Assembly: GCA_963813715.1 (NCBI GenBank)
Contig: CAWFAK010000007.1
Location: 192,001-256,000 of the forward strand
DNA from: an uncultured Planctomycetaceae bacterium
GTDB taxonomy: Bacteria > Planctomycetota > Planctomycetia > Planctomycetales > Planctomycetaceae
Length of the DNA stretch: 64,000 bases
Direction of reading: 5' to 3'
Program-made: the position numbers and the translations under genes
Notes under the pieces: generated by a model
What the model was told of the DNA's origin: nothing
Seen by the model: only the letters and a program-made list of their open reading frames with translations
The model's database searches: none
Part shown: positions 32,003-43,073 of the stretch, piece after piece
How positions within the stretch are numbered: the stretch's first letter is position 1
Layout: each line of letters starts with the position of its first letter

Positions 32003-32371
32003 ATGGCGGTTCAAACCTCGAACGAACTCATCCACAAGAAATGCTCCCCCTGCGAGGGCGGCGTGGCAGCGGTCCAGCCGGACGAGGCCAAGTCCCAGCT
32101 TGAAAAGCTCCCAGGTTGGCGGATCTCGCACGCCGGCAAGCGAATTCGCAAGGACTGGACCGTAAAGAACTTCATGGCCGGGTTGGATTTTTTCAAACGC
32201 GTCGGCCAACTCGCGGAGAGCGAAGACCATCATCCCGATCTGCACCTTGAAGGCTATCGCAACGTCTGGATCGAACTCTCGTCGCACGCAATCGGCGGAC
32301 TGTCGGAAAACGATTTCATCCTGGCTGCGAAGATCAACGACCTTTCCGTCGAGCTGCAGCCGGCCAAGTAA
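32003..32371 (+). CDS. phhB: Pterin-4a-carbinolamine dehydratase
   Basis: CSPCEGG, AESEDHHPDLHL, SHAIGGLSENDFILAAKI; AAGGA RBS. Confidence 0.93.
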   Translation: MAVQTSNELIHKKCSPCEGGVAAVQPDEAKSQLEKLPGWRISHAGKRIRKDWTVKNFMAGLDFFKRVGQLAESEDHHPDLHLEGYRNVWIELSSHAIGGLSENDFILAAKINDLSVELQPAK

Positions 32372-32528
32372 GCACTACCGCGAGCGGCCGGAGGCAGTTC
32401 TCCGCGGCGCGGGAGCGGACGGGTGAAGCTATGAGGAGCGGTAAGAGGTAGGCCGAGCCGGTTGGTGGTTGTGCTTGAACGTGGTAAACGGAGTTTGTTG
32501 CCAACCGTTTCCACAAAAGGACACCGCC

Positions 32529-33549
32529 ATGAAATTTGCCGGCTGCGACCTACACAAGCAGACTATCACGATTTGCGTCGTCGACCAATTGCGGCGGGTC
32601 TTGGAGCGTCGGACCGTGCGTTGTGGCGAAGAGCGGACCATCCTGGCATTCTTCGAAAGACTCGGGGAGTTCGAGGCTGTCGTGGAAGCGACCGCCAGCT
32701 ACGAATGGTTCGTGCGATTGATCGAGCCCGTGGCCCATCGCGTGTTGTTGGCCCACCCGAAGAAGCTGCGTGTGATTGCCGAGAGCACGCGTAAAAGCGA
32801 TCGGCTCGACGCGCAAATCCTCGCGGAGTTCCTGGCCTTGGACATGATTCCGACGTCTTACCGGGCGACTCCGCGGCAGCATGAGCATCGACGACTGGTG
32901 CGTCAGCGGGGCGGCGTTCAACGGCGATTGACCTCCGTCAAGAACCGTCTGCGCCGCATTCTCTGCGACTACAACGCGGATCGCCCCAGTCTGTTCACCG
33001 TGGACGGGTTGGCGTATCTCGCCCAAGTGCCTCTCTCGGGAGCGGATCGGTTCGCCGTGGATCAAATGGTCGAAGAGTTGCACTTCGGGCGGCGTCAGCT
33101 GCTGGCCGTCAACGCCCGGCTGAAGGAGTTCGCCGAGGCGGCGCCGCTTTGCGAGCAGGAAGGCGCGGACGCTGTTGCGGACGATCCCCGGAGTGGGCTT
33201 CGTGACCACCGAAGTTGTGCTGGCCGAGTTGGCAGACATTGATCGCTTCGGTTCGCAAAAGCGGGTCGTCGCTTACGCAGGGCTCTCACCGGGTCAACGC
33301 GAGAGTGCGGGCAAGAGTCGGGAGCTGCACCTGGAGAAGAACGGTTCGACGCTGCTGCGCTCGACGCTGGTGGAAGCCGCCTGGCGGCTGGTTCAGCACT
33401 CGTTACGTTGGCGTCGGATTTATGAACGATTGAAGTTGCGCGTGCGTGCCAAGAAGGCGATCGTCGCCGTGGCCCGCCGGTTGTTGTGCCTGATGACAGC
33501 GATCTTGAAGACGGGCCAACCCTACTCGCTCAGCCAGCAACCGACTTAA
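32529..33549 (+). CDS. IS110-family DEDD recombinase/transposase (one extra G near 33162)
   Basis: GCDLHK, VVEAT, KSDRLDA (DEDD), TIPGVG, YAGLSP..RESAGK (conserved Ser), AIVAVARRL. Deleting one G gives a 339-aa ORF. Confidence 0.95.
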
Positions 33550-33589
33550 ATCCCTGACCTTGGCAGGAGAGCACAAAACAAAACATCGA

Positions 33590-33800
33590 TCGAAAGCGCT
33601 GCGACGACCCACAGACGACCCCGCCCCCGGCCATGAAGGCGTTCCCTCAAAAGAGCGACCTTCGAAGGGTGAATGGGGCGTCTCTCGAAAGTCGGCTTCC
33701 TGGCGACATCGACGGACCTGTTCCAGACCGTTGGTGATCCCGAATAGATGGTTGAGCGTACCGCATCGCCCAGATCACCACTTCAAACGCAAAAACCAAC
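33590..33800 (+). ncRNA. Putative bridge RNA (seekRNA) of the IS1111-type element; ends approximate
   Basis: Stem-loops carry CCCCGGCCA and GAAGGGTG (target halves) and ATAGATG and CTTCA (donor-junction halves). Confidence 0.8.
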
Positions 33801-33824
33801 CCTTGACGCTACCCTTCTCATAGA

Positions 33825-33915
33825 TGGCCGGGGCGCTCCGCGTAGCGGAAGCCCCGGAACGCCGGCCTAGCCCACCACTTGCCTCCGAGCCTTCAGGGAC
33901 ATTCGCCCGCCGAAT
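33825..33915 (+). repeat. REP-like repeat, copy 1 (interrupted by the IS)
   Basis: About 90 bp, closely similar to 42937-43025 (TGGCCGGGG.GCTCCGCGTAGCGGAAGC.CCGGAACGCCGG...CCACTTGC.TCCGA). Confidence 0.85.
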
Positions 33916-34025: not shown

Positions 34026-35840
34026 CTAGTTCTTCGCCGCCTTCGCGCGAATGCAATACAGGTTGTCGACGCTGCGGAGGTAGATCGACCCATCGGCGAC
34101 GGCGGGCGAGGCCCAGAATTGCTCGCTCAGCTTGTTGGTGCTGAGCAATTTGAACTCCGGGCCCGCGTCGAGGACGTGCGTCGACCCCGCGTCGTCGAGG
34201 CAGAAAATCTTTCCCTCGGCGGCCCAGGGAGACGTCCAGAACGCGGCGGCCTCCGGAATGCGATGACGGTACAGCAGCTTGCCCGTCGCTTTGTCGTAAC
34301 AGGTCAAGAGGCCGCCGTTGTTCTTGAGAATGTAGACGTGACCGTTGTAGATCAGCGGTGACGCCTTTTCGGGACCGCCGCGCGACGTCGACCAGGCGAC
34401 CCCGGCGTTGGAGGTCTCGTTTTGTTTAAGCGTGAGGTCGCCCGACGCGCCGGCCTTCACCGCGTAGAGCCCGCCGCCCCCGCCGCCGTTCATGCCCATT
34501 CCCGGCTCCGAGCCGACGTAGAGCATCTCCGCGTCGCCAACCGGTGACGAGTAGCAACGGCCGCCCATCTCTAATTCCCAAAGCACTTTGCCCGTGGCCG
34601 GATCGTAGGAGCGGACCTTGTGGCCGCTGGTGACCAGCTCGGTGCGGACCTTGTTCTTCCACACGACGGGTGAGCAGTGGTTCGTGCGCTCGTCGCGGGA
34701 GACGCGCCACAGCTCCTCGCCCGTCTCGGCATTGAGAGCGACGAGGAACGACTTCTCCTCGTTGTCGATCTGCAGGTAGAGCCGCTCGCCGTCGAGCACA
34801 GGCGAGCTGGCGGGGCCTTGGCCCATCACCGTGGGAAACGATCCGAAGTCTTTCTTCCAAAGTTCCTTGCCGTCAAAGTCGTAGCAGTAGAGCCCGTGCA
34901 TGCCGAAATAGGCGAAGACGCGGCGGCCGTCGCTGACCGGCGTCTCGGTTGCGTAAGTATTGCTCTGTTGGATGGCGGTGCGTGGTTTTCCGTCGAGCGC
35001 GTGCTTGTCCCACAGGACTTTGCCCGTGTTGCGATCGAGGCAGACGACTTGCCAGTGATAGACGGCGTTGGGGATCCGTTCGCCCATGCCCCGGCCCATT
35101 CCACCGCCTCGGCCTCCGCGTCCGCCGCGGCGCCCGCCTCCGGGGCCTTCACGCAGCGCCTGCAACTGACCCTTCTGCTCCTGGTTCAGAATCCTTTCGA
35201 GCTTGCCGGTGGTGGTCTTCTGGAAGTCGTCGAGCTGCTTCTTCTGGGCGTCGGTCAGCTTCAGACGCTCGACGTCCGCCGCGGGCAGGACGCGTCCCGG
35301 CTCCGGCCGACGGAACCGAGGAGCCTCGTCTTCTTCCGGCGGCGCTTTGAGCGTCTTTTGTTGTTCTGGGGTGAGCAGCTTGGCGAGCTCGGCGTCGACT
35401 TCTTTTTGCAGGTCGTGGAGTTGCTTCTTCTGCGCGTCGGACGGCTCAAGCCGGTCCTCGAGAAACGGAGGCAAGAGCACGCCGGGCTGCGGGGGTCCGC
35501 CCGGACCGCCGCCGAATCCGCCGCGCCGGCCGCCGCCGCGACCGCCCGGGCCGCCCATACCGAACCCACGGGACGGCCGCGCCTGGTTCTCGGTGCTGGC
35601 GGTGGTCACGAAGACTTTGTCGCCGCACACAATGGGCGACGACCAGCCGAGCCCCGGGATTTTCGTTTTCCAGAGCACGTTGATGCTGGTCCCCCACTCG
35701 CTCGGGATAGTCGTGGCGGCCACGCCGTCGCTCTGCGGTCCACGAAACTGCGGCCAATCATCAGCCTGAAGCAAGGCCGCCGAAACGCCGACGACGAGCC
35801 ACGCGATTCCGATCGATTTACGGGTCGACTCGCCGATCAT
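34026..35840 (-). CDS. Secreted PQQ-like beta-propeller protein
   Basis: Signal peptide, DWPQFRGP, GWSSP, NTYATETP, SSPV repeats, FWASPAVADG. ATG at 35840 preferred. Confidence 0.9.
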   Translation of the reverse strand: MIGESTRKSIGIAWLVVGVSAALLQADDWPQFRGPQSDGVAATTIPSEWGTSINVLWKTKIPGLGWSSPIVCGDKVFVTTASTENQARPSRGFGMGGPGGRGGGRRGGFGGGPGGPPQPGVLLPPFLEDRLEPSDAQKKQLHDLQKEVDAELAKLLTPEQQKTLKAPPEEDEAPRFRRPEPGRVLPAADVERLKLTDAQKKQLDDFQKTTTGKLERILNQEQKGQLQALREGPGGGRRGGRGGRGGGMGRGMGERIPNAVYHWQVVCLDRNTGKVLWDKHALDGKPRTAIQQSNTYATETPVSDGRRVFAYFGMHGLYCYDFDGKELWKKDFGSFPTVMGQGPASSPVLDGERLYLQIDNEEKSFLVALNAETGEELWRVSRDERTNHCSPVVWKNKVRTELVTSGHKVRSYDPATGKVLWELEMGGRCYSSPVGDAEMLYVGSEPGMGMNGGGGGGLYAVKAGASGDLTLKQNETSNAGVAWSTSRGGPEKASPLIYNGHVYILKNNGGLLTCYDKATGKLLYRHRIPEAAAFWTSPWAAEGKIFCLDDAGSTHVLDAGPEFKLLSTNKLSEQFWASPAVADGSIYLRSVDNLYCIRAKAAKN

Positions 35841-36096
35841 GCGGCTCGGTCCTTTGCGAAGTGTGTTTGGAAAAGAAGTGCTCGCGAATACCTTGCCGGC
35901 GCCACAAGAGGGCGCCGAGCACCGGATATTACTGGAATCATGAGACCGCCGCAGCACGACGTCCGGCATCAAGTCCGCGAGCTTAATAGGAGATTAAGAC
36001 CGACATCGATTGTCCGAGATTGCCACTTCTTGGCCGCGAAGCTCGCCGTTGTGGCTGCCAATTATGGTTGGACGGTGTCCTACGAGACTTACGAGA

Positions 36097-42735: not shown

Positions 42736-42930
42736 ACGAACCTCGACTGGCTCGTTTGCGTGCTTCGCGGCATCGCCCTGCCTGCCTGTGCACAATTGCC
42801 GAATTTCCTGAGATTCGCGTTCCGGAATTCTCATTACGGAAATCAAATCACCGGGAACTCGTCGGATCGCAGATTTTTCGGGATTGGAAACTCGTTGATT
42901 CGGCCGCGTTCCAAAGTTTTTAACGCCGGC

Positions 42931-43073
42931 GACGGGTGGCCGGGGAGCTCCGCGTAGCGGAAGCGCCGGAACGCCGGTTCAGCCCGCCACTTGCTTCCGA
43001 ACTGTCAGGACATTCCCGGCCGAACGAACTGACGGAGAAACGGGGGCTTCCGCGAAGCGGAGCGCCCCGCCAC
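42931..43073. repeat. REPIN-like inverted doublet; contains an empty IS target
   Basis: Left arm GTGGCCGGGGAGCTCCGCGTAGCGGAAGCGCCGG; right arm (43041-43073) reverse-complements to GTGGCGGGGCGCTCCGCTTCGCGGAAGCCCCCG. Confidence 0.85.

Follow-up and report, generated by a model that had tools for sequence, protein, structure and literature searches.

A probable bridge-RNA target-binding module in the non-coding end of an IS1111-type element from an uncultured Planctomycetaceae bacterium

How does an insertion sequence that is found again and again at the same few nucleotides recognise them, and is the answer written in its own non-coding DNA? The question is raised by a 1.4-kilobase (kb) element in a 64,000-nucleotide (nt) stretch of the genome of an uncultured Planctomycetaceae bacterium (G000:C7:192001-256000, part of a 7.5-Mb assembly); this whole stretch is called the window below, and positions are counted from its first letter. 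A preliminary description, made from the letters of the window alone, had read the ~275 nt behind the recombinase stop codon as the source of a guide RNA, in which an outer and an inner stem surround an internal loop whose two sides match the two halves of the insertion site. We regard it as very likely that this is an IS1111-type element sitting in a repeat that resembles a repetitive extragenic palindrome (REP), that its 3' non-coding end encodes a bridge (or seek) RNA, and that positions 33614-33682 form the target-binding module of this RNA, with a second module downstream.

The window copy, at 32426-33824, is an insertion sequence of 1.4 kb that belongs to the IS110 family and, within it, to the IS1111 type. 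It is one of 8 in this genome, which are 97-100% identical to one another; the 7 others lie on C5, C7, C8 and C12. In an alignment of the copies their flanks part exactly after GGGTG on the left and before TGGCC on the right; because the similarity begins after GGGTG and stops before TGGC, the body is set at 32426-33824 with a TG on either side. Its length is 1399 nt in the window copy; of the four copies with a full-length recombinase frame, three measure 1398 nt and the one at C8:46193 measures 1399 nt, in each case plus one TG core. The features that define the element are the following.

32418-32425, plus strand: left target half GACGGGTG, with the core TG at 32424-32425
32426-33824, plus strand: insertion sequence body, delimited by the aligned flanks of the copies and by empty-site contigs from elsewhere
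32429-32435, plus strand: left subterminal inverted repeat CTATGAG, the reverse complement of 33817-33823
32529-33549, plus strand: recombinase gene (DEDD RuvC-like and Transposase_20 domains), frameshifted in the window copy by an extra G
33817-33824, plus strand: right end CTCATAGA, with the right subterminal inverted repeat CTCATAG at 33817-33823
33825-33833, plus strand: right target half TGGCCGGGG, leading into a REP-like palindrome at 33830-33857

All 8 insertions read GGGTG on one side and TGGC on the other, i.e. the element is site-specific, and its inverted repeats are subterminal and not terminal: they are perfect over 7 base pairs (bp) and inset from the body ends by 3 nt on the left and 1 nt on the right. 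Of the 18 homologues whose left end could be aligned, 15 have the hexamer CTATGA, the exceptions being L039 (CTATGT) and L047 and L048 (GTATGG; L numbers denote individual elements). In contigs from two other public runs 33825 comes straight after 32423; the 1401 nt in between are absent, and the join is ambiguous by 2 nt. A third public run has the same empty-site join, seen there as a loose end. From these empty-site contigs it follows that the target is GACGGG-TG-GCCGGGG (GACGGGTGGCCGGGG) with a TG core, as had been proposed from the letters, and that the insertion is polymorphic in nature. The core is backed both by the 2-nt ambiguity of the join and by unoccupied REP sites reading GGGTGGCCGGGG, of which the genome holds four exact examples, all within the REP repeat. 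The insertion thus lies in a REP-like repeat between GGGTG and GCCGGGG, with a shared TG core; behind 6 of the 8 copies stands the palindromic repeat GGGGCGCTCCGC...GCGGAAGCCCCGG, which is present at 22 more places in the genome, and uninterrupted copies of the repeat read ..CGGGTGGCCGGGGCG.. or ..CGGGTGGCGGGGGCG...

Since the stop codon ends at 33549 and the body at 33824, the non-coding end is 33550-33824, i.e. 275 nt as first described, compared with 103 nt (32426-32528) upstream of the gene. Within it lies the module that appears to read the target.

33614-33682, plus strand: target-binding module, consisting of an outer stem, an internal loop and an inner hairpin (33635-33663)
33614-33622 with 33675-33682, plus strand: outer stem, GACGACCCC paired with GGGGCGTC, with one bulged A
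33624-33633, plus strand: right target guide CCCCCGGCCA, 9 of 10 bases complementary to 33825-33834
33635-33644 with 33653-33663, plus strand: inner stem, GAAGGCGTTC paired with GAGCGACCTTC
33664-33671, plus strand: left target guide GAAGGGTG, in the same sense as the top strand of the left target half

The two stems round an internal loop were found where they had been drawn, and both recur in the centroid folds of three different stretches. The two guide segments flank the internal loop on its two sides and overlap on the TG core. On the 5' side, CCCCGGCCA (33625-33633) is the exact reverse complement of TGGCCGGGG (33825-33833), core included, and on the 3' side the left guide agrees with 32418-32425 at 7 of 8 positions; both matches bear out the preliminary description. 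Because only GGGTG of the left target half is constant among the 8 copies, the 7/8 left match is specific to the site of the window copy, and the left target half that is actually recognised is probably 5-7 nt long.

Could these two matches be a captured piece of the REP target, or a chance resemblance in G+C-rich DNA, with no guiding role at all? The repeat that serves as target exists in dozens of copies, the genome contains the 9-mer 191 times (both strands counted), and short G+C-rich matches are common: among 20000 dinucleotide-preserving shuffles of the 275 nt, the 7/8 left match appeared in 1725 and the exact 9-mer in 75. However, not one of the 20000 shuffles held both matches in this order and 20-60 nt apart. 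Conversely, when 20000 pseudo-targets drawn from the window were compared with the real non-coding end, 66 found an exact 9-mer complement and 3 found both features. The two halves moreover lie in opposite senses across a conserved, covarying stem-loop and do not form one contiguous REP fragment, and relatives inserted at quite different sites (TGGCACGCC, TGGGACAAG, TAAGCCCGA, CGGACCGG) hold the matching letters in the same alignment columns. We therefore consider a captured fragment or a coincidence extremely improbable.

Whether the loop segments guide can be judged by comparison with relatives. When the proteins of 398 genomes of the same order were searched, 49 of these genomes, including the genome of the window, had matches at E <= 1e-30. 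The comparison set was drawn from relatives that are 47-76% identical and whose flanking DNA was long enough, the ends of three multi-copy elements being fixed from all of their copies. Eighteen related Planctomycetaceae elements entered the guide-flank count, L034 and L035 being one element in two genomes. Left out were L040 and L044 (the former with an unrecognisable left end, the latter because its contig stops at the right end), L049, L050, L052 and L053, with partial genes, and L051 and L054-L057, which are 33-35% identical and have unalignable non-coding ends. In the aligned elements the non-coding ends share a conserved scaffold that runs GACGACCCCG, 10 variable bases, inner hairpin, ..GGGTG, AATGGGGCGTC, and the variable 10-mer follows each element's own right flank, as in these examples.

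Window: right guide CCCCGGCCA, right flank TGGCCGGGG
L031: right guide CCCCAGCCA, right flank TGGCTGGGG
L034: right guide ATCGGGCTTA (..GCTTA), right flank TAAGCCCGA (TAAGC..)
L037: right guide ATCGGGCCTA (..GCCTA), right flank TAGGCCCGA (TAGGC..)
L038: right guide TGGCGTGCCA, right flank TGGCACGCC
L039: right guide ACCGGGCCCA (..GCCCA), right flank TGGGCCCG (TGGGC..)
L043: right guide CCCGGGGCCA (also given as CCGGGGCCA), right flank TGGCCCCGG
L045: right guide GCTTGTCCCA, right flank TGGGACAAG, the site of two of its four copies; the other two differ at one base

Watson-Crick pairs between right guide and right flank number 9 of 10 in 12 of the 18 elements, 8 in one, 7 in three, 5 in one and 3 in one, compared with a mean of 3.2-6.1 of 10 per element when the guide is set against non-cognate flanks. 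The left guide shifts with the left flank in turn: L038 reads TTCGTGTG (CGTGTG) where its flank is TCGTATG (CGTATG), and in the two CG-core elements, L047 and L048, both guide and flank read TAGGCCG. Right and left cognate matches together average 14.2 of 18 against 9.9 for non-cognate pairs, and none of 20000 permutations of the flank assignment reached the observed total. The segments co-vary with the flanks of the homologues, the opposite of the refuting outcome that the preliminary description had set beforehand. Nine further hits of the covariance model introduced below were held out and examined, and three of them (L074, L081 and L079) have a recognisable right end. In L074 the guide CCCCCCGCCA fits the flank TGGCGGGGG, which is the other REP variant, at 9 of 10 positions, and L079 is identical to the window element.

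The same relatives speak for the fold of the module. In the 18-sequence alignment A1, 11 of the 17 stem pairs have changed on both sides, compared with 4.7 +/- 1.5 in shuffled alignments, none of 500 of which scored as high, and 89.5% of the cells are paired, a share that drops to 32.5-62.0% once the partners are shifted by 1-3 columns. A covariance model built from homologues had been suggested at the outset; the resulting model of the target module, R1, spans 74 positions with 17 pairs. In its own genome R1 recovers 33612-33686 and its counterparts in the 7 other copies, each on the expected strand, and it detects no stand-alone RNA gene outside the 8 element copies among the 150 of ~7500 first-look candidates that were scored. 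Hits occur in 18 of 151 genomes of Planctomycetaceae. Rfam has no family for the region, its two hits at E 1.4 and 6.5 being of the order of chance, so no curated bridge-RNA model covers it.

The stretch behind the target module holds strands that match the element's own ends and may form a second module, for the donor.

33683-33760, plus strand: candidate donor-binding module
33694-33700, plus strand: strand GGCTTCC, partly complementary to the left end (TGAAGC)
33707-33736, plus strand: hairpin of variable sequence, which folds in 16 of 18 sequences
33743-33750, plus strand: AATAGATG, equal to the right end ATAGA plus the core TG

The first of these strands matches the own left end of each element at 69 of 108 positions in total, a sum that none of 20000 permutations reached, the clearest left-end matches being those of L032 (CAC) and L038 (CTC). 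The last strand, AATAGATG, is invariant in the 16 aligned relatives with a TG core and reads AATAGACG (ATAGACG) in the two with a CG core.

Several observations weigh against a guide RNA and have to be set against the above. The left guide is short, and GGGTG alone is constant among the 8 sites. The related elements are kin by descent, so the permutation counts overstate their independence; the right-guide register of L045-L048 was placed by hand, one base off the MAFFT columns; the right guide fits poorly in L036 (3/10), L046 (5/10) and the held-out L081 (6/10 by eye); and L040 has no recognisable left end. The fold energies are unremarkable by themselves (z = -0.68, -1.78 and -1.38), and because these z-scores are too weak it is covariation that is used as the structural evidence. 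The conserved stems proposed for the donor module (A1 columns 119-123/216-220 and 138-143/200-205) do not covary, with 78.9% paired compared with 78.7% in shuffles, so that this module is a reasonable proposal and not a demonstrated structure, and the change of its core letters is known from a single lineage (L047/L048). The non-coding end has no promoter-like or terminator-like site. The six metatranscriptome runs with matches are represented by contigs, three of these runs having contigs that span the whole element; such contigs give neither strand nor ends nor level, do not exclude DNA, and are no direct evidence of an RNA. Finally, the recombinase gene of the window copy is broken. As to the three poorly fitting elements, off-target insertion, rearranged flanks and decayed copies are all possible reasons.

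The points that concern transcription would suit a module that works as DNA, i.e. a place in the right end at which the recombinase binds or synapsis occurs and whose resemblance to the target is a coincidence. A scan of 32350-33900 found no sigma-70-like promoter site, and the sole terminator-like site lies inside the gene and within chance expectation; no transcript emerges from the public-run contigs, and the subterminal repeats typical of IS1111 elements could be bound as DNA. Against this, the pairing of the stems is kept through G-U and U-G intermediates when the plus strand is read, which is workable only as RNA of that strand. The protein family is labelled RNA-guided by NCBIfam, and in the published work on IS1111 seekRNAs, RNA from this very region co-purifies with the transposase and is both required and reprogrammable (PMC11187229). 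A purely DNA-borne role is, in our judgement, very unlikely. The lack of a promoter inside the element also agrees with a remark in the same paper that the only promoter of ISEc11 is the one formed at the circle junction (PMC11187229). A candidate for half of such a promoter is present here.

33803-33807, plus strand: conserved TTGAC, 16 nt before the body end and found in all elements with a located right end

This motif is possibly the -35 box of a circle-junction promoter; by eye, no clear -10 box follows it across the junction, and no back-joining (circle) contig is listed among the public-run contigs.

The recombinase itself places the element. The 339-residue product of a full-length copy (L005) scores 50.6 bits against PF01548 (DEDD_Tnp_IS110; cut-off 29), 81.6 bits against PF02371 (Transposase_20; cut-off 21.3) and 214.5 bits against NF033542, the NCBIfam model for 'IS110 family RNA-guided transposase' (cut-off 140), and in its C-terminal half it resembles the ISCro4 and IS621 transposase chains of known structure (E ~1e-12). 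The assignment to the IS1111 group, made from the letters at first, holds, because the long downstream non-coding end, the 7-bp subterminal repeats (about 7-17 bp in the group), the 339-residue recombinase and the REP target all fit the published descriptions (PMC11187229, PMC11208160). What does not hold for the window copy is the claim of a complete RNA-guided recombinase: an extra G at 33162/33163 splits the gene into a 237-residue frame that ends at 33242 and a 124-residue frame (33175-33549), so that the PF01548-type and PF02371-type domains fall into separate frames.

The broken gene raises another possibility, namely that the guide once worked, that the family is now inactive in this genome and that the window copy is a fossil. 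Damage of this kind is not confined to one copy. A 1-nt insertion at the identical gene position is found in four of the 8 copies, one of which has a further deletion, and of the four with the full 339-residue frame one (C7:42923) has D94N. Residues D7, E53, D91 and S259 are invariant in 22 homologues, and we take D7, E53, D91, D94 and S259 to be catalytic from their position in the motifs, D94 probably being the fourth acidic residue; for this reason only three copies look fully intact. Yet these three, one of which lies at G000:C5:643807-645254, keep the 339-residue frame with D7, E53, D91, D94 and S259, the copies are 97-100% identical, and the guide module is identical in 6 of the 8. The locus is unoccupied in other samples, which makes the insertion polymorphic and recent, and in all four public runs that were compared the gene has the unbroken form without the extra G. 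We accordingly hold it very improbable that the family has fallen silent here. The target module RNA of the window copy is the same as in 5 of the 7 other copies, and on this ground the window copy could be moved in trans.

Two details of the gene deserve mention in their own right. At 33158-33164 two of the copies with the insertion read GGAAGGCG and two read GGAAAGCG, as against GGAAGCG in the four without it; a mutational hotspot, spread of one broken copy in trans and gene conversion may be raised as causes of this repeated 1-nt insertion. The copy with the altered acidic residue (G000:C7:42923-44362, L005/L028) is otherwise full-length and has N at residue 94 in the KSDRLD motif, where the 7 other copies have D.

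How a guide RNA of this kind would act can be sketched by analogy with the published mechanism of the family, which is the source of the steps in which RNA is made and bound, a circle is formed and strands are exchanged. The element would be excised as a circle that joins ..CTCATAGA-TG-AAGCTATGAG.., and RNA from the 3' non-coding end would bind the recombinase with its DEDD RuvC-like and serine-bearing C-terminal domains. The outer stem and the inner hairpin would hold the internal loop open and expose two guide strands, of which the 5' strand, CCCCCGGCCA, may pair with the top strand of the right target half, core included, and the 3' strand (..AGGGTG) with the bottom strand of the left half, the two guides overlapping on the TG core. 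In this way the target module would contact both strands of GGGTG/GCCGGGG in the REP. The second module (~33683-33760) is envisaged to pair with the joined ends and so to hold the circularised donor; the complex of recombinase and RNA would then bring target and donor together, and the strands would be exchanged at the TG core.

The relatives vary in the core itself. L047 and L048 have switched to a CG core, and three guide strands have changed to match. In L034, L035 and L037 (genomes G102, G103 and G087, respectively) the left junction has TG (GGGTG) and the right junction TA (TAAGCCC or TAGGCCC); the right guide has TA, as against TG in both the left guide and the donor strand. Where the repeat is unoccupied in these genomes, it mostly reads GGGT(A/G)(A/G)GCCCGAAT, with no extra bases. 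This pattern suggests that a donor with a TG core inserted into a site with a TA core and that the mismatch was resolved alike each time. It is a tentative and rather doubtful idea that nature has, in this clade, experimented with the core dinucleotide used in IS1111-type bridge recombination. If true, the second core base would be tolerant and programmable in this clade, and the pattern of the junctions would report which strands were exchanged or kept.

The mechanism is not new, the RNA-guided kind having been known since 2024; the element itself appears to be a new example. The closest likeness is to the seekRNA of ISEc11, ISPa11 and ISKpn4 (Siddiquee et al. 2024, PMC11187229), which is likewise encoded in a non-coding region downstream of a 339-residue DEDD transposase in elements with subterminal repeats. 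The IS1111 seekRNAs described there are stem-loops of ~70-80 nt in which the complement of the top strand lies 5' of the complement of the bottom strand and the two overlap in the target, as is the case here; ISPa11 has a REP target too, no internal promoter was seen, and ISEc11 and ISXne4 are close relatives retargeted by guide letters on a kept stem (PMC11187229). Unlike the elements of that report, the present one has a Planctomycetaceae host, another sequence and target, and a serine motif of the form GL-P----SA, and it is known from its sequence alone. The motif of the element reads GLSPGQRESAG; its serine is followed by A, as in 15 relatives of 53-76% identity, and L047 and L048 have SD there, compared with the motif GL-P----S(t)G, with SG or TG and occasionally TA, in IS1111 transposases of 330-350 residues (PMC11187229).

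IS621 and its IS110 bridge RNA (Durrant et al. 2024, PMC11208160) offer the second point of reference. There, as in our reading, a target and a donor module carry left and right guides that are aligned on a 2-nt core, and the recombinase has DEDD and Transposase_20 domains. The differences are that the RNA lies in the right end instead of the left, that the order of the guides is reversed and that the present element has longer subterminal repeats. In many IS1111 orthologues a multi-loop seems to hold the donor-binding bases, and the donor strands of the present element may likewise sit in a more complex loop than that of IS621 (PMC11208160). The cores differ as well: that of our element is TG (CG in two relatives), unlike that of IS621. 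The IS621 core is CT.

ISPpu9 and ISPpu10, IS110-family elements of Pseudomonas putida (PMC12288879; ISPpu10 in PMC11208160), are similar in that they are multi-copy, occupy one REP position and have a gene for a small RNA behind that for the transposase. The RNA gene of ISPpu9 also exists in additional stand-alone copies (PMC12288879), whereas here, among the scored R1 candidates, the RNA was found only inside the 8 copies. Among the papers searched, none combines Planctomycet, IS110 and bridge RNA.

IS110/IS1111-type RNA-guided recombinases are under development as genome-editing tools. About a dozen natural relatives that present different targets on one RNA scaffold are a ready-made map of which loop positions are guide and which are scaffold, and they hint at the tolerance of the core. 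That a reader of the raw sequence alone could recognise a bridge-RNA target loop is of methodological interest. For the biology of the host, the element is an active-looking, REP-targeting one that is widespread in soil Planctomycetaceae, with an insertion at this locus that is polymorphic between samples: near-identical copies were found in 20 public runs from 19 studies, mostly soil or rhizosphere metagenomes and including six metatranscriptomes, which argues that the element or its host lineage is widespread.

The surroundings of the element add some minor observations. Two of the 8 copies lie outside the main REP, at G000:C7:435595-437005 and G000:C8:46193-47610; their right flanks are TGGCTGGGGTCGAGCC.. 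and TGGCCGAGGCCC.., respectively, with one mismatch each to the right guide, and the TGGCTGGGGTCGAGCC flank belongs to a second class of palindromic repeat that also occurs unoccupied at C5:658421. One exact unoccupied GGGTGGCCGGGG site lies inside the window, at 42934-42945, in a REP-like unit (context 42925-43000) that resembles the flanks of the inserted copy over ~75 nt; judged by its letters, it is a potential landing site 9 kb from the insertion. The insertion site itself is intergenic. Upstream of it, a gene for a pterin-4a-carbinolamine dehydratase (PF01329; 32003-32371, plus strand) stops 47 nt short of the target, and the downstream neighbour (34026-35972, minus strand) is a 648-residue open reading frame whose translation has glycine/arginine-rich stretches.

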